Positions 8,549 to 49,632 of a DNA stretch of 64,000 nucleotides are shown piece by piece. The stretch comes from Gammaproteobacteria bacterium (lineage in GTDB: Bacteria; Pseudomonadota; Gammaproteobacteria; Eutrophobiales; Eutrophobiaceae), in the NCBI GenBank assembly GCA_965222155.1, contig CBDCTH010000012.1:2592001-2656000 (forward strand), read 5' to 3'. A program made the position numbers and the translations under genes. Position 1 is the first letter of the stretch, and every line of letters begins with the position of its first letter. The notes beneath the pieces were generated by a model that did not search any database, had not been told where the DNA came from, and saw nothing but the letters and a program-made list of their open reading frames with translations.

Positions 8549-8590
8549 ATCGTGCCAGAATCGTGCCAATATCGTGCCAGAATCGTGCCA
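8549..8590. repeat. Four ATCGTGCCA direct repeats at 11-bp period upstream of the Fic gene
   Basis: Copies start at 8549, 8560, 8571 and 8582. Confidence 0.8.
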
Positions 8591-8620
8591 ATGATACGCC
8601 TTGCCAGGCAGGGACGGAGA

Positions 8621-29700: not shown

Positions 29701-29810
29701 CTGTGATTTCGTGGGAATATGTTCCCCATTTGTGCTTGTAAGCATAAATATAGAGCATTTATGGTTGAATTTGCTTGTCATATCGTCACTTTTCGGGTAT
29801 TTTTGACGAC

Positions 29811-30959
29811 ATGGTGTACCAACGAATCACTCGACTATCAAGCCGCAGTTTCTTCCTGTTCGGTGTGCGAGGCGTTGGCAAGAGCTCATGGGTGCGTGTA
29901 ACGCTTCCAAACGCGCTACGCTTTGACCTGTTGGATGAAGCGCTATATCACGATCTCCTGGCTGACCCGTCGCTGTTTCGAGAATTGGTTTCCACCGTTT
30001 CACAAGGTGATTGGGTTGTCATCGATGAGGTACAGCGCATTCCTACGCTGCTGAATGAGGTGCATCGACTGATAGAGGAACGCGGCCTGCGTTTTGCCCT
30101 GCTCGGCTCCAGCGCACGAAAACTCAAAACCGCGGGCACAAACCTGCTGGCCGGGCGGGCAAATCGTAAGGCCATGTACCCACTGGTTCCGCAAGAACTT
30201 GGCGCCGATTTCATCCTGGAGGATGTGCTCAGGTACGGCAGCATCCCCCTGGTCTGGACTGCGGACGACCGTCGTGAAGTTCTCGAAAGCTATACTCAAC
30301 TGTACTTGAGGGAAGAAATTCGCGCGGAAGCCGTAGTCCGCAACCTGTCCGGTTTCGTTCGTTTCCTTCCCATTGCCGCGTTGCTTCACGGGCAGACCTT
30401 GAATGTAACGGGCATCGCCCGGGATGCCGGGGTAGCGCGCACTACCGTTACCGGCTACCTGGATGTTCTTGAAGACACCCTGCTCACTTGGCGTCTGCCC
30501 GCTTTCGAAGCCAAACTGCGGGTGCGTGAACGACGACGCCCAAAACTCTACTGGGTCGACTCCGGCCTGGTGCGCGCCGTGAAACGCCAGTTCGGGCCCG
30601 TATCAGTGGAGGAACGCGGCGCCCTGTTCGAGGGCTGGGTTCTCAGCCTGTTGCGCGCCCACGCTGAAGAACAATCGGTATTTGACACCATTCATTACTG
30701 GGCGCCGGCAGAATCGAATACTGAGGTCGATTTTCTGCTCAGCCGGGATACCGAATACCTCGCCATTGAGGTCAAAGCAGCAACACGGTATAACACTGTC
30801 TTACTCAAGGGGTTACGCGCCATTAACGACCTGCCACATCTGGTCCGCCGCATTCTCATCTACAACGGCGCGCGCGCCTTCCATACCGAAGACGGTATTG
30901 ACGTGTGGCCGGTGAAACAATTGCTCGAAGCGTTGCAAACAGATGAGCTTTGGCCCTGA
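29811..30959 (+). CDS. AAA_14 ATPase + DUF4143 protein
   Basis: GVRGVGKS, IDEVQR, LGSSA, KLYWVDSG, EVDF..IEVK. Confidence 0.9.
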   Translation: MVYQRITRLSSRSFFLFGVRGVGKSSWVRVTLPNALRFDLLDEALYHDLLADPSLFRELVSTVSQGDWVVIDEVQRIPTLLNEVHRLIEERGLRFALLGSSARKLKTAGTNLLAGRANRKAMYPLVPQELGADFILEDVLRYGSIPLVWTADDRREVLESYTQLYLREEIRAEAVVRNLSGFVRFLPIAALLHGQTLNVTGIARDAGVARTTVTGYLDVLEDTLLTWRLPAFEAKLRVRERRRPKLYWVDSGLVRAVKRQFGPVSVEERGALFEGWVLSLLRAHAEEQSVFDTIHYWAPAESNTEVDFLLSRDTEYLAIEVKAATRYNTVLLKGLRAINDLPHLVRRILIYNGARAFHTEDGIDVWPVKQLLEALQTDELWP

Positions 30960-31896: not shown

Positions 31897-32565
31897 ATGG
31901 CAAGGCTGGCAAGGATCGTTCTACCTGGGTATCCTCACCACGTGACGCAACGGGGGAACCGTCGTCAGGACGTGTTCTTTTGTGAAGGCGATTTTCAGGC
32001 TTATCTAAACCTGCTCAAGCAATGGTGTTCACGGGAGTCGGTAAAGATATGGGCATACTGCCTGATGACTAACCACGTCCACCTGATTGTCAAACCGGAA
32101 GAAGGGTCCAATCTCAGCCGGGCAATCGGGGAGACGCACCGGCGTTACACACGGATGATTAATTTTCGGGAACAATGGCGCGGCTATTTGTGGCAAGGTC
32201 GGTTTGCCTCCTTTCCGATGGATGAACCGTGGTTGTTACAAGCAGTTGCGTATGTGGAATATAATCCGGTGGCGGCGGGCATGGTTACGCAGCCCTGGGA
32301 TTATCCTTGGAGTAGCGTTCATGCCCATTTGGCCGGGAGGGACCCGCAAGGGATAGTCGAGGTGGTTCCTTTACTTGATTTAGTTGGGGGAGACTGGCAG
32401 ACATACTTGAGTGCCTGCCAGGCGGGTAAGAACGGGAACTTTGCAGCCCATGAGCGCACGGGCAGACCCTTGGGGGATGAGGGATTTATTGGAAGGATTG
32501 AGAGGGCGTTAGGCCGGCCGCTGAAAAAGAAAAAACCGGGGCCAAAAGCACGACAGGATAATTAA
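31897..32565 (+). CDS. REP-associated tyrosine transposase (RAYT, Y1/HUH)
   Basis: PHHVTQRGNRR, AYCLMTNHVHL, LWQGRF, YVEYNPV, YPWSS; flanked by 19-bp IR GGGGACACAATACTTAATT (31862-31880 / 32560-32578). Confidence 0.92.
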   Translation: MARLARIVLPGYPHHVTQRGNRRQDVFFCEGDFQAYLNLLKQWCSRESVKIWAYCLMTNHVHLIVKPEEGSNLSRAIGETHRRYTRMINFREQWRGYLWQGRFASFPMDEPWLLQAVAYVEYNPVAAGMVTQPWDYPWSSVHAHLAGRDPQGIVEVVPLLDLVGGDWQTYLSACQAGKNGNFAAHERTGRPLGDEGFIGRIERALGRPLKKKKPGPKARQDN

Positions 32566-33279: not shown

Positions 33280-33799
33280 AGGGCTAGACAACCCCTTGAA
33301 GAATATTTATTATCTGAACTCCATTGCCGACATAAGAAATTACCTGGAGGTATGCCGGACAGCCCGGAAATAAAGGAATGACGACCGCAAACCAAAATCA
33401 GGAAAAATTCCAGAACCTTCTTCGCGAGTTGTTCCAGTTTGATTGCGCCGACCTGGATTTCGGTATCTACCGCATCATGAATCACAAACGGGATGTGATC
33501 GAAAAATTTATCTCTGTAGACCTTATTCAGGCTGTCAGCAAGGAACTTGACCAAGGTGTCCTGCACGATCAGGAACTGGCTGTCAGTGAGTTACAGGAAA
33601 CAGCCCAATTAATCAGAGAAACTCTGGGTAATAATGCCTTGGATGCTGCCGGCAGTCTGAATGAAATATACCGGAATAGTCCAATCGGAGATAAATTGCG
33701 TATTTCACTGAATCCTGCCACCCGTTTCACGTGAAGGCTGCCACCCGGAACGCAGCAAAGCTGCCACCCCCAGGCGCGTGATGACGTGGGTGTTGGTCA

Positions 33800-34618
33800 T
33801 TATGACTCTGTTGGGGTCATCGTCGTCAATGTTTTTTTCTGTTTTCGCATGGATTCACCCTTGAGTTGTATTTTGTAAGCATTGTGCACCAGGCGGTCAA
33901 GGATGGCATCGGCGAGGGTGGGGTCGCCGATGCTGTGATGCCATTTTTCGGCCGGTAATTGACTGGTAGCGAGGGTGGAGCGTGCGCCGTGGCGGTCTTC
34001 CAGGATTTCCAGCAGGTCACGGCGCTGCTCTGCGTTCAATTTGACCAGGCCCCAGTCATCGAGGATGAGGGCCTGGGTTTTTGCCAGGGTGGTGAGGAGC
34101 TTGGGATAGCGTCCATCGCCCTTGGCGATGGACAGGTCCTGGAGGAGTCTGGGCAGGCGCAGGTAGAGGGCGGTGTAGCCGTGCCGGCAGGCGTTGTGTG
34201 CCAGGGCACAGGCGAGCCAGGTTTTGCCGACGCCGGTGGGGCCGGTGATGAGGATATTGAGGTGTTCGCGGACCCACTGGCAGGTGGCCAGTGATTGCAT
34301 CAGGGATTTATCCAGTCCGCGCGGGTGGCGATAGTCGATATCCTCCAGGGTGGCATTGTGTTTGAGGCGGGCGCATCGCAGCCGGTTGGACAGGCGTCGG
34401 TTGTCCCGTTCGGTTATCTCCCGGTCGACGAGCAGGCCGAGGCGTTCCTCGAAGCTGAGGGTATCGATATCGGGCACGGACATCTGCTCGGTGAGGGCGG
34501 CAGCCATACCGGTGCATTTCAAGGTCTGGAGTTTGTCCAGGGTGGGATGTATCAACATAGCAGTCTCCTGTCGTGGGTCAGTGGTAGTAGGATGGGCCAC
34601 GGATATTGTCGTGGTCAT
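33800..34618 (-). CDS. istB: IS21 helper ATPase IstB (likely start MLIHPT at 34558)
   Basis: [31 protein letters not shown]. Confidence 0.95.
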
Positions 34619-36119
34619 CAGGTAAGGCCGCCTCGGTCTGCTCGGCGAGGGGTTGCCGGTCCAGGCCGTGGCGGAGGATGGATTCGATACTTTTGTAACT
34701 GTGGCTGCCCAGGGTGAGGGCGCGTTGGCAGGCGGCCTCCAGCCGGTCGTCGCCGTAGGTTTTAGCCAGGCGCAGGATCCCTAAGCAACTGCGGTAGGCC
34801 TGCTGGGGGTGCTTGCGGGCAGACAGGACACGGAGGATAAGGGTTTCTGTGGCCGGCCCGACCTGCGCGGCCCAGCGGCCCAGGCGTTGCGGGGACCACT
34901 CGCCGGCCTGGCGGTGCGCCTCGGGCATGTGGGCCGGGACGGTGGTATGACGTGCCTTATGATACGAGCGTCGATGGCTGGCGATGCGCTGGCCGCGATG
35001 AAAGCATTCAATGGTGTTGGCGGTGATGCGCACGTCCAGTTGTTTTTTGATGAGCGCGTGGGGCACGGAGTAGTAATGGCCATGGACCTCGATGTGATAG
35101 TCGATATGGACCCGCGCCTGCTTCCACTCGGCGTATTCGTACGCTTCGACGGGCAGGGGGCGCAGGGCCGGTTTATCCAGTTGCTCAAACAGCGCGCGCC
35201 GGGTGCCCGGCAGTTTCTTGAAGGGCCGGTTGTTGAGCGTCTCCAGCAACGCCCGGATGGCGCGGTTCAACTCGGCCAGGGAGAAGCACTGACGCTGGCG
35301 CAGGGCGGCGAGGATCCAGCGCTCTACCACCTGTACCGCGACCTCGGCTTTCGCTTTGTCACGGGGACGACGCACCCGTGCCGGGACAATGGCGACCCCG
35401 TAATGGGTGGCCAGGTCCTGGTAGGTGGGGTTGATGTCCGGCTCATAGCGATGCGCCTTGCTGACCCCGGCGCGTAAATTATCCGGCACCACCACTTCAG
35501 GCACACCGCCCAGGTAGGTAAAACAGCGCACGTGGGCGCCGATCCAATCTTCCAGGCCCTGGCTCCAGGTGGCCTCGGCATAGGTGTAGTTCGACGCGCC
35601 CAGCGCTGCCACAAACACCTCTGCCTCACGGACTTCCCCGGTTGCCGGGTTGATGACCTGAGCACGCATACCGGCATAATCCACGAACAGCTTCTCACCG
35701 GCCCGGTGCTCCTGGCGCATGACCAGATCCAGCTTGCCACGCCACGTCCGATAATGCTGGCAGAACCAGGTGTACTGATAGCCTTGCGGGTGAGTCTGGC
35801 GATACTCATGCCATAACAACTGCAAGGTGACGCCCGGGCGTTTCAACTCCCGATGAATGTGTGACCAATCGGGCACGCCGCGGGCCGCGGCGGGTACAGC
35901 TGGGGCGGGCGGAAACAGCAGACGCTCCAGCGCCCCGTCATCCAGCGCCGCAGGCAGCGGCCAACCCAGCCCGGCCGCCTCGGCCCGGCGCAGGTACTCA
36001 TCCACCGCCGGACGGGAAATGCCACAACTCCTGGCTGTCTGGCGTTTGCTCAGGCCCTGGCTCCAGCACAGGCGTAATACGTCTTTTATCTTTCTCATGG
36101 ACAACCTCTTTGCAGGCAT
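34578..36119 (-). CDS. istA: IS21 transposase IstA
   Basis: [38 protein letters not shown]. Confidence 0.95.
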
Positions 36120-39100
36120 CTGTGTCTCCTCCTTTCAGTAGAAATAAGGACACAGGATACCCTTGGTTATCCACGTCAAACGCGCCGGTTATCTACCTCC
36201 TTGGGGGTGGCAGCTTTGCCGTGTAATGGGTGGCAGCTTTGCTGTGAAATACGCAATAAATACGAGAAACTACAAAGACGGTCTCGCGGCGCACGCAGCC
36301 GGGCAGCTCAGGAAGCAGATATATTCAACCACCTGTTCGCTTTCTTCAGTCGCTATTACCAGGAAGGTGATTTTATCTCGAAACGCCGCTACTCCAAGCA
36401 ACAACGTTATGCCATTCCTTACAACGGAGAAGAGGTGTATTTGCACTGGGCAAACGCAGACCAGTACTACATCAAGACTGCCGAGCACTTTCACGACTAT
36501 TCCTATAGCGCGCATGGCGCCACCATACATTTCAAACTCAGTAACGCCGATGTTGAGCAAAACAATGTTAAAGGTGATCGGCGGTTCTTTCTACCTTGTA
36601 TTCATGGAATTACTCCAGACGAAAATACCAAAGAACTTACTATCCCATTTGAATATCGGCCGTTGGATGAACAGGAAGAAGCTCATTATGGCAGAGCTAA
36701 TCAACAGGATACCATTATCGCCGGGTTCGTTACGGAAATACAGGGACGTTCGGGCCTATCGAATGAAATCCTGCTTGCGCTGACTACTGAACGCCATCGC
36801 AATGTGGACAACAAACCGGTCACGTTTCTGGAACACCATCTGAGGCAATACACTCGCCGAAATACCTCCGATTTTTTTATTCATAAAAACCTGAAAGCAT
36901 TTTTATCCCAGGAGTTAGACTTCTACATCAAAAGCGAAGTGTTGAACCTGGATGACTTGGAGATTGCCGGCGAGGGGTTCGCCGAAGGCTGGTTTCAGGT
37001 TATCCGGGTTATCAGGACGATAGGTAGTCATATCATTGACTTTCTCGATCAGATCGAGGGATTTCAAAAGATGCTATGGGAGAAGCGCAAATTCATTACC
37101 GAGACACAGTATTGCATCACTATCGGCACTATTGATGAACGCTTTTATCCTGCCATTACCGACTGTGAACCGCAATGGGAGGAATGGAAAGTCCTGTTCC
37201 ATATTGACGAGAATAAGACCGACCTTTTCAATTCCGGCGAAAACACGAAGGACAGACGCATAATCTTTATGAAAGATCATCCAACCCTGGTTCTGGATAC
37301 CAAGCACATCGATGAGGACTTCAAGGATGAACTGCTCTCATCTATCGAAGACATTGATGAGCTATGTGACGGGTTGTTGATTCAGTCGGAGAATTTTCAG
37401 GCTTTGGGCTTCATACAAGAGCAGTACAGGGAGAAAGTGAAGTGTATGTATATAGATCCGCCATATAATACGGACGCATCTACGATCCTGTACAAAAATG
37501 ACTATAAGGATTCGTCCTGGCTTTCCCTGATGGACAACCGCTTGTCTCTTTCAAGAGATCTGCTGTCAAAAGACGGCATCTTGTGTTGCGCAATTGATGA
37601 TGAAGAAATGTCGCTAATACGACTGGTCATGCAAACGATGTTTGAAAAAGAATTAGGCATCGTTCCTGTACGTTCTAATCCCGCCGGACGTAAATCAAGC
37701 GGACAGTTTTCTCCCGCCCATGAGTATGCACTTTTTTACGGCAATGCCGATGCTATTCCTGGAACCCTGCCTAAAACGGAAAGTGAGCTTGCGCGTTTCC
37801 CGCTTCAAGATAATCGGGGTAGATATGCCTGGGCAAACTTGATACGAAGTGGTTCGAACGATAGGAGAGAAGACAGACCAAAGATGTTCTACCCAATTTA
37901 CGTCACAAAGAATAACACAATTCGCATTCCCGAAATAAAATGGAACGAGGATAAACGAGAGTACAGTGTTCTGGAACAACCTGGGGAGGATGAAACCGTA
38001 GCGTGGCCGATCAAGATACAGAATGGAACAAGTGTTGAGAAAAATTGGCATCGTGGCTGGAAATTGGTCAAGAGTGATTTGTCTGAATACAGAATTCGTC
38101 GTGATGAAGGAGGTACTGTCAGCATTGACTTCAAAACACGCATGGATACTGATTCAATGCCCAGGACTTGGTGGGATGACAAGAGATATGCTTCAGCAAA
38201 TCTAGGGCCAAAGGCGCTTAAGGATCTTTTTAGCAACAAAGACTTCGACTTTGCAAAAGCGACTGGCTTAGTTGAAGATTGTTTACGCTCTTCACTTTGC
38301 GAATTAAACTCAACAGTTCTCGACTATTTCGCGGGCTCCGGTACTACCGGCCACGCAGTCATCAATCTTAATCGCAAAGACGGCGGTAAGCGAAAATTTA
38401 TCTTAGTTGAAATGGGACAGTATTTCGATACAGTTCTGTTGCCGCGTATGAAGAAGGTAACATTTTCCCCTGAATGGAAAGACGGAAAACCGAAGCATAT
38501 GACCACCAGGGAGGAGGCTAAGCGTAGCCCGCGTATCATCAAGTGCCTGCGCCTGGAAAGCTACGAAGATTCGTTGAATAACATCGGTTTTGATGACTCG
38601 GCGGGACAACAGGCCATGAAATTCGACGACTACCTGCTCAACTACATGCTCCAATGGGAAACCAGGAATAGTTCAACACTTCTGAATATTGAGAAACTGG
38701 CCCGACCCTTTGATTACAAGCTACGAATCCGAATCAATGGCGAGACTAATGAAAAGGTAGTGGATATTCCAGAAACCTTCAACTATCTGCTTGGACTACA
38801 GTTACAGACGCGTCGTATCTATAACGATGAGGAAAGACGCTATCTAGTCTATCGCGGACTGATTGACCAGCGACAGGTTGTCGTCATTTGGCGGGAAACC
38901 AAGAGTTGGCAGAAAGAAGAACTGGAACGGGACAAACAGTTCATCTCTGAATTGAAAATAACCGAAGACGCAGATGAAGTTTTCGTCAATGGCGATTCTT
39001 TCATCCCGAACGCCAAATCCCTGGATCCGATCTTCAAAACCCGTATATTTGCGCCGATGTCGGTATAAAAGTTAAATCCAGGAAACTGGAGGACAAACCT

Positions 39101-39130: not shown

Positions 39131-41155
39131 ATGACAGTAATAGTTACTAAATTGACCTCCGCCGATCTTGATGCGGTTGATGAACTAATGAAGCGTCATA
39201 GCAGGACGCTAGGCTTTCTGCCCAAAGAAGCCCTTCGTAATTATCTCGAAAAAGAAAATACGATAGGCGCAAAAACTAATGATGGCAAACTGATTGGTTA
39301 TCTTCTCCAAGCGGCTAATCCAAACCACTTCCGTATTACTCAACTTTGCGTGGCGGAAGATTTCAATGGACAAGGTATCGCAAGACGGCTTATTACTGAA
39401 CTAAAAAATTCTGCCACATCACAGAAGGTCATTAAACTTCGTTGTCGTAATGATTTTCCTGCCCACCAAATGTGGCCCAGATTAGGATTCTCTGCTATAG
39501 ATGAACTGCCCAGTCGCTCCAAGGATAAGCTCCCTTTGACACTCTGGTGCCTTACTCTCGCCCCGGATGATCAGCTTGGACTTTTTCAGGTAAAAACATC
39601 AGATGAATCCCTTGACGTGGTTATTGACGCGCAAATATTTTTCGATTTTGATGAAGCAGACAGTGATAAATCAGGACCGTCGAAGGCTCTGCTCTCAGAC
39701 TTTTTGGTAGACGATCTTAGACTCTTAATCACCGATGATCTTTTCAATGAAATTGCTCGGGAGAAAGATACCAGGCAGCGTGAAAAATCCCGAAACAAAG
39801 CACATGAATTTCCGAAAATAGAGTACGACTCTAAATTAGCAGAACATTTTGAAGGGGTTATAAAGACATTTCTTCCAAGCGATAGTCGAAGCCGCCAATC
39901 CGATATAAGACAATTAGCAAAGACCTCTGCTTCCGAAGTGAATATTTTTGTTACCCAAGACCAAATGCTCTTGAAAAACTCAGTGGAAATTGCAGCGCGA
40001 GTATCTGTCCAAGTGGTATCCCCGATAGAGTTGATTATTGGATTACACGAACTTTCCGAAAAACAATCCTATGCGCCAACGCGTATTGCCGGCTTTGATC
40101 TTCACTGGCGGCGATTATCTTCTGAGGAAGTTGCTCGCTTCCCATATAATTCTTTTCTTAGTCAGGGTGAAAGGCAAGGTGTTTTCAGGGAAAGATTGGG
40201 TGCATTACTTGTCCGTCCATATCATAACGAAGCTGAATATCTTCAATCAAAGGATGATACTGCCGCTATCCGGGTTCTCACAAAAGAAACCAATAAGACA
40301 CTCACTATATCTCTGATGAGAGTGGCGAAATTTGTAGATGACCGACCCCTACTTGGACGCTTTGTTATCGCGGACACTATTGCCAAGGCTGTTGAACAAA
40401 ACCTAGACATGGTAAAGATCGATATAACTGACCTAACGCCTGATTTAGAGCCGGATCTTTTGGAGATGGGCTTTATAAAAGGTAACGACAGTTACATGAG
40501 ATTTTGCTTTTCCCGTTGTCTTACTCGCACAGAGGTATTAGCCAAGATTCACGAACTAATACCTGGACTCGTAAACAATTATCAAAATATGTCAGAGCTA
40601 GGGCTTCAAAGATGTTGTTCCCCCCTTAATCTGAAAGATGCCGTTCAAAACTACTTTTTAATTCCGATTCGTCCTGGCTATGCAAAGAGCCTAATTGATA
40701 GACAGCAAGCAGCTATTGATATGTTTGTGCAGAATCCCGGAGTATTACTGCGGTGGGATAACGTATATTACAGGGCAAAAACCCACCATCACATACTCAA
40801 GTCCCCAGGCCGAATTTTATGGTATGAAAGCGGAGATGAGGCTAGACAAATCGTGGCCATATCCTGTCTTGACGTCGTTGAGATAGGCACTGCCAAAGCA
40901 CTTTTCAAGAAATTTAAAAAATTTGGAATCTTAGAGTGGAAAGACATATTTGATATGTGTGATGGGGACCCCTCCAAAGAGATCATGGCGTTGAGATTTT
41001 CGCATACATTCCAATTTAGAAAGCTTGTATCACTGGATGCGTTGCGAAAGGTCTTTGATGAACATGGAGCTAACTTGGTATTGCAATCTCCATCCAAGAT
41101 ACCAACTGAAATTTTTTGTAAACTATTTCAACTGGGATATCCGGACCAATTATGA
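39131..41155 (+). CDS. GNAT acetyltransferase - PIN - degenerate GNAT-like - EVE/PUA-like multidomain protein
   Basis: GNAT motif A QLCVAEDFNGQGIARRL; PIN acidic set VVIDAQ / NEI / SDIRQL / FVTQD; C-terminal LIPIRPGYA..NVYY..PGRILWYES..LQSP. Confidence 0.78.
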   Translation: MTVIVTKLTSADLDAVDELMKRHSRTLGFLPKEALRNYLEKENTIGAKTNDGKLIGYLLQAANPNHFRITQLCVAEDFNGQGIARRLITELKNSATSQKVIKLRCRNDFPAHQMWPRLGFSAIDELPSRSKDKLPLTLWCLTLAPDDQLGLFQVKTSDESLDVVIDAQIFFDFDEADSDKSGPSKALLSDFLVDDLRLLITDDLFNEIAREKDTRQREKSRNKAHEFPKIEYDSKLAEHFEGVIKTFLPSDSRSRQSDIRQLAKTSASEVNIFVTQDQMLLKNSVEIAARVSVQVVSPIELIIGLHELSEKQSYAPTRIAGFDLHWRRLSSEEVARFPYNSFLSQGERQGVFRERLGALLVRPYHNEAEYLQSKDDTAAIRVLTKETNKTLTISLMRVAKFVDDRPLLGRFVIADTIAKAVEQNLDMVKIDITDLTPDLEPDLLEMGFIKGNDSYMRFCFSRCLTRTEVLAKIHELIPGLVNNYQNMSELGLQRCCSPLNLKDAVQNYFLIPIRPGYAKSLIDRQQAAIDMFVQNPGVLLRWDNVYYRAKTHHHILKSPGRILWYESGDEARQIVAISCLDVVEIGTAKALFKKFKKFGILEWKDIFDMCDGDPSKEIMALRFSHTFQFRKLVSLDALRKVFDEHGANLVLQSPSKIPTEIFCKLFQLGYPDQL

Positions 41156-41640
41156 ACGTGACCACTCCGCTGCTTATTTCCTTGAAGCCCCACTATGCTG
41201 ACTTGGTTTTCGAAGGTTTAAAACAGGCAGAGCTACGTCGCCGCATAACACCTTTCATAGAAAATCGCGATGTATATATCTATGTTTCCAGCCCAGTTCA
41301 GCACCTGCGCGGAGGCTTTCGCGTGGGACATGTGTGGAGAGGATCACCGGATGAAATTTGGAACGAGGTATCAGAACTTGCAAGCATCGATAAGCGGGAT
41401 TTTGATGCCTACTACGCAGGAAGAACTATAGCTTATGCTTTGAAAATCACGGATGTTTGGGAGTACGTGTACCCTATCGACCTGACCACTTTGAGAAAAC
41501 GCTTTCCTCGTTTTGTAGTCCCACAATCCTGGCGTTATGTGAGGCCTGAAGAACATCGGTCTTTTCGCAGGATGAAACGTAAAAATGATGAAATTCAGCC
41601 TGCTTTGGTTTTGAAAACCACCTCACGTTCAAAAGTGTGA
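41152..41640 (+). CDS. ASCH-domain protein
   Basis: LLISLKPHYADLVFEGLKQAELRR (GxKxxExR), YIYVSSP, PQSWRY; ATGA overlap with the upstream gene. Confidence 0.88.
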   Translation: MNVTTPLLISLKPHYADLVFEGLKQAELRRRITPFIENRDVYIYVSSPVQHLRGGFRVGHVWRGSPDEIWNEVSELASIDKRDFDAYYAGRTIAYALKITDVWEYVYPIDLTTLRKRFPRFVVPQSWRYVRPEEHRSFRRMKRKNDEIQPALVLKTTSRSKV

Positions 41641-41659: not shown

Positions 41660-44600
41660 ATGCAACCAACTCAATATATCAAACTCGAGCAGCGTCTCAT
41701 CCTGCTTGCCTGGCTGAATGACCTGTTCGGTTATAAAAACAACCAGGAGATTCTGCAGGATATCAGGGAATCAGATGAAGGTTTTGACGCTGAAGGTCGA
41801 ACTCATATCTACCGCCGACTGATGTCTAGGGGCGGGAGAGTTCGTATCCCGCGAGATGACCTGGAGCGTTACGACCACAACCTGCGCGTCCACCTGCGAG
41901 CTATCAGCACACGACGACCGGGGCTTAAACTCAAATACTTTCAATACCTCGCCGCACTTTATACTGAGATTTTCCTGGATGGCTATTTCAGTAACCGGGC
42001 GAACATGCTCCTATTGTTAAATGATTTCCTGGTTCGTTATAACGCCAGCGCAGGCGTACTTTCAGAGGAAAAATTTGTCGAAACCGACCTGAAAAAACTG
42101 GCCTTCTGGATGGCAACGGGCAGCGGTAAGACCTTGATCATGCATCTGAACTATCATCAGTTCCTGCACTACAACTACGCAGCACTGGATAACATCCTGT
42201 TGATCACCCCAAATGAAGGACTAAGCGAACAACACCTCATTGAGATGGAGTTGTCGGGTATTCCGGTGAGACGCTTTGACCTGAATGAGAGTGGCCTGCT
42301 GATGACCAAGAAGGATACAGTCCGGGTCCTTGAAATTACCAAGCTGGTCCAGGAGAAACGCGGTGGCGGAGAACGCGTGCCCGTGGAAGCGTTTACGGGT
42401 AACAACCTGATATTTGTGGACGAGGGGCATAAAGGTTCCGGCGGAGAAGCGTGGCTTAAGTTGCGCAATGCCTTGGGTGAGACAGGGTTTACCTTTGAAT
42501 ACAGCGCCACTTTCGGCCAGGCTTTGACGGCAACGCGTAACGACCCACTGACGAAGGAATACGGCAAGGCTATTGTCTTCGACTATTCCTATCGTTATTT
42601 CTACGGTGATGGCTACGGCAAGGACTTTCGCATCCTTAACCTGGTAGAAGAAACCTCTGAGGAGACAACAAATATTCTGCTCCTAGGTAACCTGTTGTCA
42701 TTTTATCAGCAAAAAAGCCTGTTTACGGAGCGAAAGCAAGACTTGCGGCCCTATAACCTGGAGAAACCGCTATGGGTGTTTGTGGGCAGCACGGTAAACG
42801 CGGTTTATACCAAGGACAAACAGACACGCAGTGATGTTCTAACGACAGCCAGATTTTTACATCATGTATTAAAGAATAAAATCTGGACGGTTCAGGCCAT
42901 CAACAAACTATTAAATGGAAACAGCGGCCTGGTGACGCCCGATGGGGAAGATGTATTCAAGGACAAATTCGGCTACTTGAAGAGCAGTGGTATGAATTCC
43001 GCGCAGATCTACGCTGATATCCTCGCCAAAGTGTTTCATGCGCCTGCTGGCGGTGGACTTCACCTATGCAGTATCCGCAAGAGTAAGGGAGAAATAGGAT
43101 TGAAGGCGGGGAATGCCGAGGTGTACTTCGGATTGATCTATATCGGAGACGTCGCTAAATTCAAAAAACTGGTAGAACAGGATGATGCCGGCATAATACT
43201 TGAAGAAGACGCAGTGGCTGATTCTCTGTTCGGTGGCATCGGCGCGCCAGAGACGAGTATTGACATTCTGATCGGCGCAAAAAAATTCATGGAAGGCTGG
43301 AATTCCTGGAGAGTATCCAACATGGGGCTGTTGAATATCGGCCAAAGGGAAGGTTCCGAGATCATTCAATTGTTTGGGCGCGGTGTAAGACTTCAAGGCC
43401 GGGGATACAGTCTTAAGCGTAGCGCTGCACTGGACGGTGAACATCCCACATATCTGGATTTGCTGGAAACGCTGAACATCTTCGCAGTTCGCGCCAATTA
43501 TATGGCGCAGTTTCGTACTTACCTGGAGCGGGAAGGCGTTGATACCGGTGGACATAAGGAATTACATCTAGCTATTCGCGCTGATGAGCGCTTCCTTGGT
43601 AGTGGGTTGGTCGTTCCGCGTACCCCGGAGGGTCAAAGTTTCTTTGAGCAGGAGAATGTCTTTCTCAATAAGGATGAAGCCGCAAAGGTCTCCCTGGACC
43701 TTTCAACGAAAGTCCGCGTCATGGAAAGCGTGCAGGACGGTGTGAGAGAAGCCGAATTTCAGGCCGGACAGCACCGACCCATACCGGATGAAAGCCTCGA
43801 TCTCGTAGACTGGCACAAGGTATACCTGGAACTAATGGAATATAAGGAAAATAAGGGTTGGATTAATTTTGCCCTGACACCGGCAGCGGCCAGAGAAATA
43901 ATGGAGACGAAAGAACCCGTCAGACTATACAGCCTGATAGCCGACGACTCGGTTATCAAACCAAATTCTTATGCCGCCGTTACCCGCCTGCACGAGGTGG
44001 TGGTTTCAATCCTGAGAAAATATATGGACAAGTTTTACCGCGTGCAGCGAGAACGCTGGGAGTCAGAGAATATGCGCTACGAAAAACTCGGGATGGAGGA
44101 CGCAAATTTTCAGGACTATACGTTGCGGATAGCCAGTGATGAGAACGAACTGATAAAAGCCATTGAAGACTTGCTGCGAGAGGGCGAGCGTATCTATAGA
44201 GAAGAAACCAGTGAGTTACCGAATGTTTACTTCGATCGGCACCTCTATCAGCCACTGCTAATTGAGAGGGGAGGAAAGGTAAAGAGCACACCGCCGGGAT
44301 TGAATATAAACGAACAACGATTCGTCAAGGATTTGCGCGATTATTGTCTATTGCATAAAGACAATTTTTTAACTGACAAGGAAATTTACCTCCTGCGCAA
44401 CTTGAGCCGGGGCAAGGGGATAGGCTTTTTTGAGACTTCGGGCTTTTACCCTGATTTTATCCTGTGGATCAAAGACGCCCAAGGCCAGCGCATCGTGTTC
44501 ATTGAACCTCACGGCATGTTAAATGCACGTTCATACGAGTATGACGACAAGGCGCAGTTACACGAACGCCTGCCGGAATTTGCCAAAAAAATAGGCAAGC

Positions 44601-44791
44601 GAAGTGGATATCAGGATGTAAAATTGGACTCGTTCATTGTCTCAAGTACACCCTACCAGGCATTATGGGACAGGTACGGTGATGCTTCCTGGGGCCTGGA
44701 GCGGTTTGCTCAAGCCCATATTTTCTTCCCGGAACAGGGAGAGAATTACGATTACATCGCAGCCATTATGCAATCAGGAAAAGCAAACTAG
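41660..44791 (+). CDS. res: Type III-like restriction subunit Res (SF2 helicase + PD-(D/E)xK-type nuclease)
   Basis: MATGSGKT, VDEGH, YSATF, QLFGRGVRL, FYPDFILW..FIEPHG. Confidence 0.9.
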   Translation: MQPTQYIKLEQRLILLAWLNDLFGYKNNQEILQDIRESDEGFDAEGRTHIYRRLMSRGGRVRIPRDDLERYDHNLRVHLRAISTRRPGLKLKYFQYLAALYTEIFLDGYFSNRANMLLLLNDFLVRYNASAGVLSEEKFVETDLKKLAFWMATGSGKTLIMHLNYHQFLHYNYAALDNILLITPNEGLSEQHLIEMELSGIPVRRFDLNESGLLMTKKDTVRVLEITKLVQEKRGGGERVPVEAFTGNNLIFVDEGHKGSGGEAWLKLRNALGETGFTFEYSATFGQALTATRNDPLTKEYGKAIVFDYSYRYFYGDGYGKDFRILNLVEETSEETTNILLLGNLLSFYQQKSLFTERKQDLRPYNLEKPLWVFVGSTVNAVYTKDKQTRSDVLTTARFLHHVLKNKIWTVQAINKLLNGNSGLVTPDGEDVFKDKFGYLKSSGMNSAQIYADILAKVFHAPAGGGLHLCSIRKSKGEIGLKAGNAEVYFGLIYIGDVAKFKKLVEQDDAGIILEEDAVADSLFGGIGAPETSIDILIGAKKFMEGWNSWRVSNMGLLNIGQREGSEIIQLFGRGVRLQGRGYSLKRSAALDGEHPTYLDLLETLNIFAVRANYMAQFRTYLEREGVDTGGHKELHLAIRADERFLGSGLVVPRTPEGQSFFEQENVFLNKDEAAKVSLDLSTKVRVMESVQDGVREAEFQAGQHRPIPDESLDLVDWHKVYLELMEYKENKGWINFALTPAAAREIMETKEPVRLYSLIADDSVIKPNSYAAVTRLHEVVVSILRKYMDKFYRVQRERWESENMRYEKLGMEDANFQDYTLRIASDENELIKAIEDLLREGERIYREETSELPNVYFDRHLYQPLLIERGGKVKSTPPGLNINEQRFVKDLRDYCLLHKDNFLTDKEIYLLRNLSRGKGIGFFETSGFYPDFILWIKDAQGQRIVFIEPHGMLNARSYEYDDKAQLHERLPEFAKKIGKRSGYQDVKLDSFIVSSTPYQALWDRYGDASWGLERFAQAHIFFPEQGENYDYIAAIMQSGKAN

Positions 44792-44795
44792 CCGT

Positions 44796-45731
44796 TTATT
44801 TGGAAGCATAGAGATACAGCATTTCCAGTGCCAGGCTGGCGCCGGCGAGTGAGGTGATCTCCCCCACGTCATAATCCGGGGCAACCTCGACCAGGTCCAT
44901 GCCGACCAGGTTGATGCCGGCGAGGCCGCGCAGGATCTGCTGGGCCTGGTGCGTGGACAGGCCGCCGATAACCGGTGTGCCTGTACCCGGGGCATAGCTG
45001 GGGTCCAGACAGTCTATATCGAAGGTGAGGTAACAGGCGTCATCACCGACGACCCGCCTTATCTCATCCACCACGGCGTCACAGCCGTGTTCATGCACCC
45101 ACGGCGCTTTCAACTGGTTGAATCCCCACGAATCCTTGTTGAAGGTACGCAATCCTACCTGTATGGACCGCGCGGGATCGATCACCCCCTGTTTTGCGGC
45201 ATGATAAAACATGGTGCCGTGATCAACCCGGTCTTCCTCATCCTCCCAGGTATCCGAATGGGCGTCGAAATGGATTAAAGACAGCGGTCCGTATTTTTCT
45301 GCATGGGCCTGGAGAATGGGGTAAGTAATAAAATGATCGCCTCCCAGTGACAACAATCCGACGTCCTGGGAGATGATTTCGGTCGTATGCTCCCTGATAT
45401 CCGACGGGATGGTCTCCGGGAAACCGAAGTCGAATTCGCAATCGCCGTAATCGATCACCGCCAGTCTATCGAAGGCATCGAAACCCCAGTCATCCAGCCT
45501 GGCCCAGCTCAATTGGCTGGAAGCCTGGCGTATGGCGCGCGGGCCAAACCTTGCGCCGGGCCGGTTTGACGTGGCCGTATCCAGCGGTATCCCTGTGACT
45601 GCCACGTCGACACCCTCAAGGTTCCGGGTGTATTTGCGCCGCATGAAGCTGAGGACGCCGCTATAGGTCGGCTCGGCCCGGGTGCCGCGCAGGTCATCCC
45701 GGTGGATTGCCTGGTCGATGTTAACCCGCAT
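44796..45731 (-). CDS. speB: Agmatinase
   Basis: GGDHF, HFDAHSDT, TFDIDCLDP..APGTGTP. Confidence 0.92.
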   Translation of the reverse strand: MRVNIDQAIHRDDLRGTRAEPTYSGVLSFMRRKYTRNLEGVDVAVTGIPLDTATSNRPGARFGPRAIRQASSQLSWARLDDWGFDAFDRLAVIDYGDCEFDFGFPETIPSDIREHTTEIISQDVGLLSLGGDHFITYPILQAHAEKYGPLSLIHFDAHSDTWEDEEDRVDHGTMFYHAAKQGVIDPARSIQVGLRTFNKDSWGFNQLKAPWVHEHGCDAVVDEIRRVVGDDACYLTFDIDCLDPSYAPGTGTPVIGGLSTHQAQQILRGLAGINLVGMDLVEVAPDYDVGEITSLAGASLALEMLYLYASK

Positions 45732-45790: not shown

Positions 45791-46180
45791 TCAACACGAA
45801 TCAATTATCAGGTCCGCATGCCGTGCCAGCACGTCGAAATCAATGCCGTTATGAAGGATGGGCACGTCGGCGCGAAGGGCGATGGAACTAATAAGACAAT
45901 CGATCAGCTTGCGAACGGTCTCTCCCTCTCGGCGACAGAGCCGATAAAGCGTAGCCGCATCGTCGTAGTCCGCCGGCTGTGTAGGAATCACGGTAGCCCG
46001 CGCCAGCAACCGGCGAAGGTTGTGCAGGTGTCGTTCGTCGCGCGCGCCAGCAAGCACCTCCATCCGAACCGCATCGCAGGTCGCAATCTCGCCTTCAAGC
46101 AGGACCTCGACGCGATTACAGGTTGCAGACCCGGTGTCCCGAAGAAACTCAACCCACGCGGACGTATCGACCAGAATCAC
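45791..46180 (-). CDS. vapC: VapC PIN toxin
   Basis: [24 protein letters not shown]. Confidence 0.9.
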
Positions 46181-46380
46181 ATCAGACGACTGGACCGCAA
46201 CTCGTCAAGGTTGCCCTCCCAACCCGACCCGCGAAGCCGCCGCGCTTCATTGACATCAAGAGGCTCCGCCGCAAGGGTTCGCAGCGCGAAGTTGACCGCC
46301 TCGCGCTTCGTCGTCAGACGGTAACGACGCATGACTTCCGCGCATGCCGTATCGTCGATATCCACATTGGTGCGTGACAT
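46177..46380 (-). CDS. vapB: VapB antitoxin (true start ATG 46380, [10 protein letters not shown])
   Basis: RTNVDIDD...[11 protein letters not shown]...[10 protein letters not shown]; overlaps the vapC start. Confidence 0.85.
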
Positions 46381-46714
46381 ACACACAGCATACACCACGA
46401 TCGGATAGTAGTCAAAAAAATTTGAATATTTGCTGTGTAACTCATTAGGGAGATAGGCGATGCCAGCGCGCAGAACCCCCACCCCGTCCGAAAGAGGGCG
46501 GGTTGACCATGATAACACGGTGTTGTGGCGAAACTCCCTGTGCCATGATAGCTGCCCCGCGATTATGGCTTCATGTCGGATCAGGTTTGCGCCACGGCAC
46601 CTGTGATAGCAGCATATTGCCACAGCTCTGCGTGTGAACCAACCAACGCCGGCATTTCTGCCCGCAGTTACATACCGGCGGGGTGTGCAATGCACTGATC
46701 ATGAACGTTTGGGG

Positions 46715-47516: not shown

Positions 47517-48395
47517 ATGAATAATAAAGACGACATCTATATCGGGCGCTTTGCCCCTACTCCCAGCGGACCCCTGCACTTCGGGTCCATCGTTGCGGCG
47601 CTGGCAAGCTATCTTGATGCCAGGCATAACGCCGGCAAGTGGTTGTTGAGGATTGAGGACATTGATGCGCCGCGGGTAAGAATCGGAGCAGACCGGCAGA
47701 TCATCGATACTCTGGAGATCCTCGGTCTGGAATGGGACGGCGCAATCGTTTACCAGAGTGAGCGCCTGGAACGATATGAACAGGCCTTGGCGCTGCTGGC
47801 CGATAGTGACCTGTTGTACCGCTGCTATTGCCCCAGGAAGATCACCAAGGGAAAACCTTATCCGGGCACGTGCAGGGTGCGCACAAGTCAGGATCAAAAG
47901 CCCCATTCCCTGCGAGTGAAAACGCCGGATAGATCAATTACCTATGATGACGCAATTCAAGGTCGCCTGGCAGGACGGTTGAAAGAACTGACCGGAGATT
48001 TCATACTGCGCCGTTCGGACGGGTTGATTGCCTATAACCTGGCAGTGATCATTGACGACGCCGGCCAGGATATTACCCGCGTAGTGCGCGGCGCCGATCT
48101 GGTCGATACCACTTTCAACCAGATCTACTTGCAATCCACCCTCAACCTCCCTACGCCGAGCTATGCTCATCACCCACTTGTGGTTGATGGCACGAGGAAG
48201 AAAATCAGCAAACAGGATAGCGCGACGGATGTACTGACGGGAGTCTCTCCGGAGGCGGTTCTGCTGCGTGCGTTACGCTTCCTGGGCCAAGCGCCCGACC
48301 CAAAACTGGCCCATGCCAACAAGCGGGAAATCCTGGCCTGGGCAGTCACCTACTGGAAAATCGACATGGTTTCCAGCCGGTCGCCTACGGGCTAA
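47517..48395 (+). CDS. gluQ: Glutamyl-Q tRNA(Asp) synthetase GluQRS
   Basis: GRFAPTPSGPLHFGS, LRIEDID, VVRGADL, KISKQ; lacks the anticodon domain. Confidence 0.92.
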   Translation: MNNKDDIYIGRFAPTPSGPLHFGSIVAALASYLDARHNAGKWLLRIEDIDAPRVRIGADRQIIDTLEILGLEWDGAIVYQSERLERYEQALALLADSDLLYRCYCPRKITKGKPYPGTCRVRTSQDQKPHSLRVKTPDRSITYDDAIQGRLAGRLKELTGDFILRRSDGLIAYNLAVIIDDAGQDITRVVRGADLVDTTFNQIYLQSTLNLPTPSYAHHPLVVDGTRKKISKQDSATDVLTGVSPEAVLLRALRFLGQAPDPKLAHANKREILAWAVTYWKIDMVSSRSPTG

Positions 48396-49632
48396 GCGCG
48401 CCTATTGGTATAACTGCAATGCCATCCTCCCGCCGGTATCCATAGCCGGAACTTACAATCACACCCAGGATTCCCGGGTTACCGCATTTGCCCAGGTTGA
48501 GGCGATCGCGAAACTTGAGCAGAGCGGCGGCGGCTTCGTCTACCTGACTAACCCCTAGTTTGACCTCGAATGCACACCAGTCTCCGTTCCTGCGTTGTAC
48601 GATTGCGTCAACTTCAAGACCGGTGTTGTCGCGGTAATGATAGACATCGGCGTCGGCAACGCGCCCATAAATGTTGAGTTCCCTGAAGACCAGGGATTTA
48701 AACAACAGACCCAGCAGGTTCAGGTCCTGTAGCAGGCGCTCCGGATTTGCCCGAAGCGCGGCAACGGCCAGGGACGGGTCCACGAAATGTCGTTTCACTG
48801 ATGTGCGCTGGAAGGCCTTTGAGCGCAAGTGAGTCGGCCATGCCGGTTGTTCCTCGCAAATCATGAGTCGGACCAGAGCCGACAGGTAGTCTCGAACGGT
48901 GTCATTGTTGAGTGGCCCATCCGCGCCGCCCGCGTCGACGGCTATCGTTCGGGCGCTGACCTCTGTGGCTGTATTACGCGCCAATGAGCGAATAACCCTG
49001 GTCACCTTATCCGGATCTCGCCGGACTCCATCCAACCGCCTGATATCAAGTCGTTGTATTTCCTCCAGGTAGTCCCGTTGCGCCCTCAGACTCGCGTTAA
49101 GTTGCAGGTTCAGGCTGCCCGGCCAACCGCCCCGGCACAACTGCTCGGTAATGTCACCCAGTTTATGTCCGGGATCTCCGCTGCCGGAAAAGTGTCCGTC
49201 AAACAAATCACGAAGGGATACTTCGGCGGAGGAAAAACCGGTTTCCACCAAGCTCATGGTGCGTAATCGGAGGCGGGAAATCCTGCCCGCACCAGTATGA
49301 CGGGTAATGTCATCGGTAGGTACGGCTGAGCCGGTAAGTATGAATTGTCCGGTTCCCTGACGTTGATCGGCCATCCGCCGAACATGATTCCAAATTACAG
49401 GTTCGACCTGCCATTCATCAATCAGCCTGGGTGTTTCCCCGGTAAGTACCAGCGTGGGGTCCACCGCTATGGCGCGACGTGCATTCTCATCAACGTCCAG
49501 CAGGACTTCACTTTTCGCGACTTGTCTTGCCATAGCCGTCTTGCCGCAGGCTTTGGGACCCTCAATTACAACAACGCCGGCAGAACCTAACCGGTCGGCG
49601 AGTTCTTTATCTGCTATTCTGGGGCGGTACAC
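48385..49632 (-). CDS. AAA_14 ATPase + DUF4143 protein
   Basis: GPKACGKT, IDEWQ, LTGSA, HFVDPS, EVDA..FEVK. Confidence 0.9.
   Translation of the reverse strand: MYRPRIADKELADRLGSAGVVVIEGPKACGKTAMARQVAKSEVLLDVDENARRAIAVDPTLVLTGETPRLIDEWQVEPVIWNHVRRMADQRQGTGQFILTGSAVPTDDITRHTGAGRISRLRLRTMSLVETGFSSAEVSLRDLFDGHFSGSGDPGHKLGDITEQLCRGGWPGSLNLQLNASLRAQRDYLEEIQRLDIRRLDGVRRDPDKVTRVIRSLARNTATEVSARTIAVDAGGADGPLNNDTVRDYLSALVRLMICEEQPAWPTHLRSKAFQRTSVKRHFVDPSLAVAALRANPERLLQDLNLLGLLFKSLVFRELNIYGRVADADVYHYRDNTGLEVDAIVQRRNGDWCAFEVKLGVSQVDEAAAALLKFRDRLNLGKCGNPGILGVIVSSGYGYRREDGIAVIPIGALSP

Follow-up and report, generated by a model that had tools for sequence, protein, structure and literature searches.

A four-domain GNAT and PIN protein with an ASCH partner, a candidate RNA-directed cargo module inside an interrupted type III-like restriction-modification operon

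Comparative genomics has described operons that pair a (PIN)-GNAT-EVE protein with an ASCH protein, none of them characterised in the accessible text of Bell et al. 2020 (PMC7641849). The class was first described by Iyer et al. 2013 according to the papers that cite it, and the available part of Matelska et al. 2017 (PMC5499597) presents it as a PIN_15/PIN_17 class with a GNAT-like domain that lacks motif A. The PADLOC candidate PDC-M11 comes from a 'guilt-by-embedding' survey that picked it for its embedding in defence systems and that, in the text available, calls all 145 of its PDC candidates untested (bioRxiv 10.1101/2024.01.29.577857). Here we analyse two adjacent genes, A and B, in a window of 64,000 nucleotides (nt) of a gammaproteobacterial genome (GenBank assembly GCA_965222155.1, contig CBDCTH010000012.1, positions 2,592,001 to 2,656,000). 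They belong to this predicted (PIN)-GNAT-PUA plus ASCH class, as a sequence-only reading of the window had proposed, and we hold this with far higher confidence than any mechanism. For the mechanism we tentatively prefer, at a little under even confidence, an autonomous module of an RNA-directed toxin-like effector and its ASCH antidote, which travels as cargo in defence islands.

The two genes are co-oriented with the mod and res genes of a type III-like restriction-modification (R-M) operon:

39131-41155, forward strand: gene A, an open reading frame (ORF) of 674 amino acids (aa)
41152-41640, forward strand: gene B, an ORF of 162 aa

The TGA stop of A overlaps the ATG of B in an ATGA at 41152-41155, and this 4-nt overlap is a predicted translational coupling of the pair. 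Only 19 nt separate the stop of B from the res ATG at 41660. The coordinates, the overlap and the res gap thus hold as they were first read.

Protein A was at first taken to have three domains. It has four, the additional one being a second GNAT fold at residues ~320-469:

39131-39565, forward strand: domain 1, canonical GNAT, residues 1-145 (Pfam Acetyltransf_10 over residues 29-125, 1.8e-10)
39593-40030, forward strand: domain 2, PIN-like nuclease, residues ~155-300 (PIN_3 in relatives and conserved acidic residues)
40088-40537, forward strand: domain 3, second GNAT fold with a degenerate acetyl-coenzyme A (AcCoA) motif, residues ~320-469 (AlphaFold2 (AF2) model and structure search)
40643-41152, forward strand: domain 4, ASCH/PUA-like, without the Lys-Glu octapeptide, residues ~505-674 (AF2 model and structure search)

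The N-terminal GNAT is the only Pfam match of A (41.3 bits against a cut-off of 23.6), and the motif A noticed earlier is found at N79-G-Q-G82-I-A84. G82 is kept in 40 of 42 relatives and A84 in 41, and position 79, an asparagine here, is R or Q in 37. The strict AcCoA motif R/Q-x-x-G-x-G/A occurs in 54 of 71 diverse relatives, which share 28-51% identity with A. The nearest solved sequences are Ard1/Naa/RimI-type acetyltransferases (protein N-alpha-acetyltransferases), with AAC types also among the best of the 27 Protein Data Bank (PDB) sequences matched at E<=0.01.

The region that follows is called PIN because relatives match Pfam PIN_3 and the acidic residues are conserved. PIN_3 is found in 45 of the 71 diverse relatives (best 2.4e-9), PIN in 12 and PIN_12 in six, against E 0.05 and 14.9 bits (cut-off 27) for PIN_3 in A itself. 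The acidic set comprises D166, D203, E207, D258 and D277. All 42 relatives carry D166, D258 and D277, and 40 carry E207; position 203 is E in 41 and D in the window, and D258, T275 and D277 are invariant in the 71 diverse relatives. The PIN-like acidic residues of the first reading are therefore borne out as a conserved set, while the family match of A itself stays below cut-off. A sequence-profile search of the PDB with this region returned nothing meaningful, the top match being fibrinogen at E 0.27.

Residues 296-674 were folded with AF2 from a 42-sequence alignment (predicted local distance difference test (pLDDT) 85.4, predicted TM-score (pTM) 0.85). Domain 3 (model residues 25-174) aligns with GNATs of known structure (Z 12-14; 8osp_C, for instance, scores 14.0 and RimI 5isv 13.6); its Foldseek matches to GNATs lie at ~1e-5, with 1yvk at E 0.043. 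The R/Q-x-x-G-x-G/A motif is missing from the expected place. Domain 4 (model residues 210-379) aligns best with ZmASCH (5guq_A; Z 16.2, root mean square deviation (rmsd) 2.6, 142 residues aligned; Foldseek 1.3e-8), with THYN1, an EVE protein, in second place (Z 11.9). The C-terminal region had been described as PUA/EVE-like. Its place in the PUA superfamily, to which EVE also belongs, stands; the EVE label does not, as EVE is not the best structural neighbour and Pfam finds EVE (PF01878) in none of the 71 relatives and ASCH in two. Domain 4 matches B by hhalign (E 2.3e-4) and is, by this profile comparison, a distant paralogue of B. W564 and Y565 are conserved in it, and it has no GxKxxExR octapeptide, the Lys and Glu both being missing. 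Scans with Pfam and PADLOC models found no DNA nuclease domain in A or B.

B is a stand-alone ASCH protein of the ZmASCH type and belongs to the GKER subgroup (ZmASCH/TRIP4/TthASCH type), as defined in a 2026 ASCH preprint. The GxKxxExR motif seen at first reading is confirmed as G22-L-K24-Q-A-E27-L-R29, and K24, E27, R29, Y44, Q125 and S126 are invariant in an alignment of 53 sequences. B is basic (isoelectric point 9.9), matches PADLOC PDC-M11B at 4.8e-30 over residues 7-136, and reaches 20.1 bits against Pfam ASCH, just under the cut-off of 21.2. The profile of the 53 sequences matches ZmASCH at E 3.7e-21. The AF2 model of B (pLDDT 91.8) aligns with 5guq_A at Z 20.7 and rmsd 2.1 over 143 of 143 residues with 25% identity; further structural neighbours include McrB N-terminal domains, VcaM4I and PD-T4-3. 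A YqfB-type assignment (GK[T/S]R, ~100 aa) was ruled out by Glu27, by the length of 162 aa and by the lower score of YqfB 9kyf (Z 9.4 against 20.7 for ZmASCH).

ZmASCH (ZMO0922 of Zymomonas mobilis, 5GUQ) aligns with B over its full length. In the accessible text of its description (PMC5615036) it binds single-stranded RNA (ssRNA) and single-stranded DNA, cleaves ssRNA and did not cut DNA; it was studied there alone. Its residues Y47, R32, Q127 and S128 map to Y44, R29, Q125 and S126 of B, whereas its K53 is Q50 in B, a variable position. According to the 2026 preprint, 19 ASCH proteins including ZmASCH remove N4-acetylcytidine (ac4C) from tRNA in vitro with a catalytic Lys-Glu dyad, and ASCH proteins are proposed to be general tRNA ac4C erasers. 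Cleavage of ssRNA and in-vitro removal of ac4C from tRNA are reported for ZmASCH and only predicted for B. Because the Lys-Glu motif is kept in B and missing from domain 4, B looks like a catalytic protein and the fused ASCH domain of A like a reader.

PADLOC models already match both genes, so the earlier idea of an uncharacterised module does not hold as a claim of novelty. The PDC-M11A models PDLC04421 and PDLC04422 match A at 1.1e-14 and 1.5e-10, only over residues 163-320 and 504-640, and a whole-genome search with PDLC04421 at E<=1e-10 did not return A. Because of this partial coverage and the missing return, we regard the pair, from sequence comparison, as a distant relative of PDC-M11 with an extra N-terminal GNAT. 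The likeness consists in the PIN domain, the degenerate GNAT fold, the C-terminal PUA-like domain, the GKER ASCH partner and the embedding in R-M loci. PDC-M11A itself is PIN-first (PIN-GNAT-EVE, ~490-530 aa), whereas A carries a canonical GNAT before the PIN; the C-terminal domain of A is ASCH-like, whereas two of five canonical members show a weak EVE match.

A genome search with the PDC-M11A model found five canonical PIN-first members among 401 genomes. Their partners vary, with an XRE-type helix-turn-helix (HTH)-ASCH protein upstream in two loci, an ASCH-AAA_17 fusion in one, a plain ASCH in one and a partner fused to A in one:

L229:2952-3926, L231:714-1511 and L232:2978-4015: partner variants (ASCH-AAA_17 fusion downstream of A; XRE-type HTH-ASCH fusions upstream)
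L230:1234-3147, forward strand: canonical PDC-M11A with the ASCH partner fused at its C-terminus, 638 aa, GKER at residue 520

GxKxxExR is missing from A of the window and from the four unfused canonical A proteins, and in the fused protein of L230 its sole match lies in the partner part. The fusion and the antitoxin-like HTH forms of the partner argue that A and B work together. The idea that the internal GNAT might be the active one in proteins lacking the N-terminal domain found no support: strict motif A is missing from four of the five canonical PDC-M11A proteins and lies at another place in the fifth.

The class as it appears in the available text of Bell et al. and Matelska et al. shares with our pair the domain vocabulary, an obligatory second PUA/ASCH gene, frequent R-M or defence neighbours and a GNAT-like domain without motif A. 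The published order is PIN-GNAT-PUA, whereas here a further domain with an intact AcCoA motif is added to give GNAT-PIN-degenerate GNAT-ASCH. These papers, in the same text, stress type I R-M systems and AAA_17 partners, whereas the clade studied here stands mostly behind type IIG genes and has no ATPase. In the literature searched, the term 'PIN-GNAT-EVE' was confined to Bell et al. 2020 and the corresponding preprint, and 'PDC-M11' turned up in three papers, incidentally as judged from listings.

Proteins of the A type are numerous, and those whose source names or annotations we encountered are labelled merely 'GNAT family N-acetyltransferase'. Among 90% clusters there are 583 matches to A, of which the best 120 are almost all ~670 aa long. 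Among 50% clusters there are 2047 matches at E<=1e-3, 1388 at <=1e-10 and 847 at <=1e-30, most of them covering residues 5-670, and a scan of species-representative genomes confirmed 276 loci. B lies directly 3' of A in 54 of 56 loci of the close set, the other two being remnants only. In the distant set, A was found in 79 of 80 loci and B follows it in 78, the remaining contig ending too soon. Neighbour calls came from a crude ORF caller, and 19 B genes were missed until a six-frame search. Partners with the strict GxKxxExR motif make up 45 of 53 in the close set, 72 of 80 in the distant set and five of five among the canonical loci.

The distant set comes from cyanobacteria, Planctomycetota, Verrucomicrobiota, Nitrospira, one Thermoplasmata archaeon and others. 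Three relatives lie on plasmids and others lie beside integrases or transposases; a phage collection gave no match to A. The close clade (L001-L056) extends across metagenome-assembled genomes of Poribacteria, Latescibacterota, Dehalococcoidia/Chloroflexota, Nitrospirales, Gammaproteobacteria, Verrucomicrobiales and Vicinamibacterales at 41-73% identity. Such identity across very different phyla suggests horizontal spread inside one habitat, and we take these taxa to be typical of marine sponge microbiomes. Within this clade, the A gene at L043:8001-12063 is in two pieces ~2 kb apart and may have received another insertion, and at L041:3211-4571 the full query range fits, in two pieces, on only 1.36 kb, which may reflect an internal deletion.

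The embedding of A and B in a type III-like R-M locus is confirmed, with mod represented by Pfam N6_N4_Mtase and res by ResIII. Their position between mod and res is correct as well; what fails is an intact mod, which is split by an insertion sequence (IS) of the IS21 family:

33285-33313, forward strand: best promoter-like site, ~65 nt 5' of the true mod start, 10 of 12 consensus matches, itself weak evidence
33378-33696, forward strand: 5' fragment of mod (first 106 codons); residues 1-106 of the intact mod of L001 match 33378-33695 at 81% identity
33691-33696 and 36256-36261: perfect 6-bp target duplication, ATAAAT
33697-36255, reverse strand: IS21-family element of 2559 bp with TG..CA ends and terminal inverted repeats, splitting mod
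33800-34618, reverse strand: istB gene (IstB_IS21, 1.5e-78)
34578-36119, reverse strand: istA-like gene (rve and Mu-transpos_C_2)
36262-39068, forward strand: 3' part of mod (Pfam N6_N4_Mtase); residues 103-1030 of the L001 mod match 36249-39053
41660-44791, forward strand: type III-like res gene, 1043 aa (PADLOC REase_III 1.6e-149; Pfam ResIII)

L001 is the sole other locus with the order mod-A-B-res, and its intact mod served as the reference. The interruption lies at codon 106/107, and mod stays in frame once the element and one copy of the duplication are removed. The TTG 'start' at 36201 of a 955-aa ORF (36201-39068) falls inside the IS end. PADLOC MTase_III matches the 3' part at 4.3e-169 over model positions 240-1029 of 1057. 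The IS has inactivated the mod methylase, and the type III system is broken in this genome, without an intact mod gene. The res gene appears full-length and intact, with 70% identity to the L001 res across residues 1-1038; A, B and res are all free of frameshifts and stops.

The 4.55-Mb genome holds eight full-length copies of the element at 99-100% identity (L057-L064), as well as diverged or partial copies. Because of these near-identical copies we conclude that the element is active and that its insertion in mod is probably recent; the perfect target duplication also suggests a recent event. Contig depth over the IS is ~10-12x that of the flanks in three sequencing runs. No contig of these runs spans the IS, those from the 5' part of mod entering it by 26-30 nt against a bridging rule of 31 nt.

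The stop codon of the mod frame, at 39066-39068, is followed by a gap of 62 nt that contains an AGGAG ahead of the ATG of A. Promoter-like sites are not in excess in the region (16 against 13.9 in shuffled sequence). The pair had been called visibly AT-richer. This is slightly true of A (GC 0.421) and not of B (0.460), compared with 0.456 for the 3' part of mod and 0.488 for res; the AT-richness belongs to the whole island relative to its flanks (0.568 and 0.543).

The mod-res junction receives different genes in sister operons. Among 80 loci with relatives of res (L149-L228), mod lies upstream in 68. The mod-res gap is shorter than 130 nt in 35 of these, including the three nearest res relatives (74-84% identity), and in the other 33 it is 420-4600 nt long and bears an insert. 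Of the 58 ORFs in these gaps, 45 were scanned; the remaining 13 were A and B of L165 or belonged to the cluster of a scanned ORF. Encoded there are MNT-HepT pairs, Fic, a HEPN protein, OLD-family nucleases, GmrSD_N and 23S_rRNA_IVP proteins, along with proteasome-like and metallo-beta-lactamase genes and several ORFs without a Pfam match. HepT-MNT, Fic, OLD and GmrSD share with A-B the insertion point, the strand and the R-M family, and several of them are RNA- or translation-directed toxins with an antidote; as proteins they are unrelated to A-B and have only the position in common. A-B itself occupies the slot among sister operons only at L165, which is on the same contig as L001. Because the slot holds varied cargo, A-B is, judged by gene content, an exchangeable toxin-like cargo among several at this hot spot and not a fixed component of the R-M system.

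The close clade keeps company with defence genes. Of its 107 immediate neighbours, 48, in 34 of 56 loci, match PADLOC models (E<=1e-5), against five of 43 window ORFs outside the island, a comparison of raw counts whose control is the window of a single genome. An R-M gene or fragment lies directly upstream on the same strand in 18 of the 56 loci, at gaps of -4 to 240 nt. These are type IIG genes (11, plus three fragments), type I S genes (three) and a type III gene (one), and the upstream R-M gene overlaps the start of A by 1-4 nt in L003, L047 and L032. The mod/res type of the window accompanies A-B in one of the 56 loci. About 29 of 79 distant loci have restriction- or defence-like neighbours, among them McrB-like AAA_5, Mrr, HNH_5, type ISP/IIG, Uma2, AbiEii and STAND-WD40. 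A co-oriented HNH_5 protein (~260-320 aa) precedes A in four distant loci (L071, L078, L107 and L119).

Elsewhere in the window, the surroundings of the island include the following genes:

8552-10045, forward strand: Fic-domain protein of 498 aa, with weak PADLOC SoFic/PDC-S04 matches
29775-30956, forward strand, and 48385-49629, reverse strand: two AAA_14 plus DUF4143 ATPase genes flanking the region (PDC-S01, 8e-52 and 4e-64)
31897-32562: IS200-like Y1 transposase
44796-45731: arginase-family gene, right of the island
45791-46695, reverse strand: VapC (PIN, 1.6e-14)/VapB pair following it

In the mechanism that we tentatively prefer, A would be an RNA-directed effector whose PUA-like domain docks on structured RNA, most likely tRNA, where the PIN domain would cut and the N-terminal GNAT would acetylate. 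B would restrain A, whether by sitting on the same RNA, through direct contact with A or as a hydrolase of the acetyl mark. Harm to the cell would arise only when the balance of A and B is upset, for example by phage infection, and the pair would for that reason act as a toxin-antitoxin-like or abortive back-up layer. It would be independent of this particular R-M system, whose methylase the IS has inactivated.

Several observations weigh against this proposal. None of the tRNA-acetylating toxins TacT, AtaT and KacT is among the 27 PDB sequences that domain 1 matches at E<=0.01, and the sole appearance of KacT (5zgn) is with domain 3, amid many generic matches to the GNAT fold. Two conserved positions of A deviate in the window, N79 and D203 replacing the R/Q and E of nearly all relatives. 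All five canonical PDC-M11A proteins keep an ASCH partner, yet the strict AcCoA motif is missing from its expected position in each, with a match elsewhere in one. For this reason acetyl writing cannot lie at the heart of the ancestral mechanism. Through polarity, the operon may be silenced by the IS in mod. The distant loci outside the ~29 mentioned lie beside housekeeping genes. An McrB-like AAA_5 gene (~520-540 aa) comes after B in six mostly cyanobacterial loci (L093, L102, L116, L118, L126 and L135), and a pair on a Calothrix plasmid lies between a type II R-M system and an AAA ATPase plus McrC-like gene; such neighbours point to DNA rather than RNA. The literature searched, with supplementary files outside the search, gave no experimental study of the A-B pair or of any member of the class.

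The main rival keeps the same domains and directs them at DNA. In this modification sensor of the type IV restriction kind, the PUA domains would read or trim modified bases on invading DNA, the PIN and GNAT would then act, and B, as a hydrolase of base modifications, would extend the range of its neighbours in the way that BapA extends that of Brig3. PUA-family readers (EVE, ASCH, YTH, SRA) are, in the accessible text of the literature, the commonest sensors of modification-dependent nucleases, and the McrB N-terminal domains, VcaM4I and PD-T4-3 are among the structural neighbours of B. BapA, which its authors call ZmASCH-like, removes glucose from glucosylated 5-hydroxymethylcytosine (glc-5hmC) in phage DNA. 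The pair often has Mrr, GmrSD-type and type IIG genes beside it, and the McrB- and McrC-like genes of the six distant loci and the Calothrix plasmid fit as well, although such McrBC-like neighbours are limited to one sub-clade. The PIN domain, however, falls into the VapC-type Pfam families PIN_3 and PIN, which are as a rule RNases (Matelska et al. 2017, in the text available). ZmASCH did not cut DNA in the accessible account (PMC5615036), and neither A nor B has a DNA nuclease domain; we judge the sensor unlikely, while treating it as a serious contender. Somewhat doubtful too, and rated unlikely by us, is an immune switch by RNA acetylation. Here the N-terminal GNAT would acetylate tRNA or another RNA (for instance at cytidine N4 or an aminoacyl group), the PUA domain would read the target, the PIN domain would cut it, and the GKER ASCH would be a dedicated deacetylase-antitoxin; the usual position of the pair right behind N6-adenine methylase genes (type I, IIG, III) would couple expression to the R-M operon that is backed up. 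DarT-DarG is a writer/eraser toxin-antitoxin pair with the same logic, in which the toxin writes a mark on nucleic acid and the antitoxin hydrolase removes it. It has no sequence or fold relation to A-B, its mark is ADP-ribose rather than acetyl, and both writing and erasing are predictions here. The acetyl writer and ASCH eraser of the sequence-only reading is thus plausible and unproven: the GKER-type B and the ac4C removal by ASCH proteins in vitro speak for it, and the five canonical PDC-M11A proteins, which retain the partner although none has an AcCoA motif in the canonical place, weaken it.

That the pair has no anti-phage role at all seems to us rather improbable. It would then be a selfish toxin-antitoxin-like cassette stabilising islands, or a module of RNA-modification turnover (acetyl writer, reader, eraser) on host tRNA or rRNA. 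The housekeeping surroundings of many distant loci, the proposed general role of ASCH proteins as tRNA ac4C erasers (2026 preprint), the resemblance of the XRE-HTH-ASCH partners to autoregulating antitoxins, and a distribution over many phyla, plasmids and the vicinity of integrases and transposases, as in mobile toxin-antitoxin cassettes, are all consistent with it. The strong excess of defence-model matches beside the close clade argues the other way, as do the HepT-MNT, Fic, OLD and GmrSD genes that otherwise fill the slot and, in the text available, the choice of the related PDC-M11 by the PADLOC authors through its embedding in defence systems (bioRxiv 10.1101/2024.01.29.577857). The pair could also be a silenced passenger in this genome, with transcription cut by the IS in the first gene of the operon and A, B and res unexpressed and decaying. 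The active element sits between the best promoter-like site and A, and the substitutions N79 and D203 are rare at conserved sites. We nonetheless find this improbable, as A, B and res are full length, the perfect duplication suggests a recent event, and the 62 nt ahead of A, which include an AGGAG of its own, leave room for a promoter. Least probable is a guard of the PrrC kind, the sense of the earlier suggestion that the pair fires when R-M is inhibited. A would be kept latent by contact with Mod/Res and set free once an anti-restriction protein of a phage knocks out the R-M enzyme. PrrC, in the EcoprrI type Ic locus, is likewise an RNA-directed toxin gene nested among R-M genes, so the mod-res position mirrors its place in the prr locus, and the 1-4 nt overlaps with upstream R-M genes imply co-expression. 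Yet A-B follows type IIG, type I S, type III or no R-M genes, has its own partner gene, and meets this mod/res in one of 56 loci; sister operons fill the slot with unrelated cargo; mod is split while A and B are intact; and neither A nor B has an ABC ATPase or the anticodon-nuclease domain of PrrC. The suggestion is thus unsupported, and we set it aside because of how the pair is distributed.

The class has been predicted since 2013 and is represented in PADLOC, and the four-domain form described here is large and widespread. In this genome, the disruption of mod by an active IS is a feature that annotation pipelines would miss. For the discovery of further cargo, mod-res junctions in this R-M family offer a practical lead. 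A-B is now more testable, with the activities of ZmASCH reported, a fusion of A and B present in one relative and the conserved residues known.

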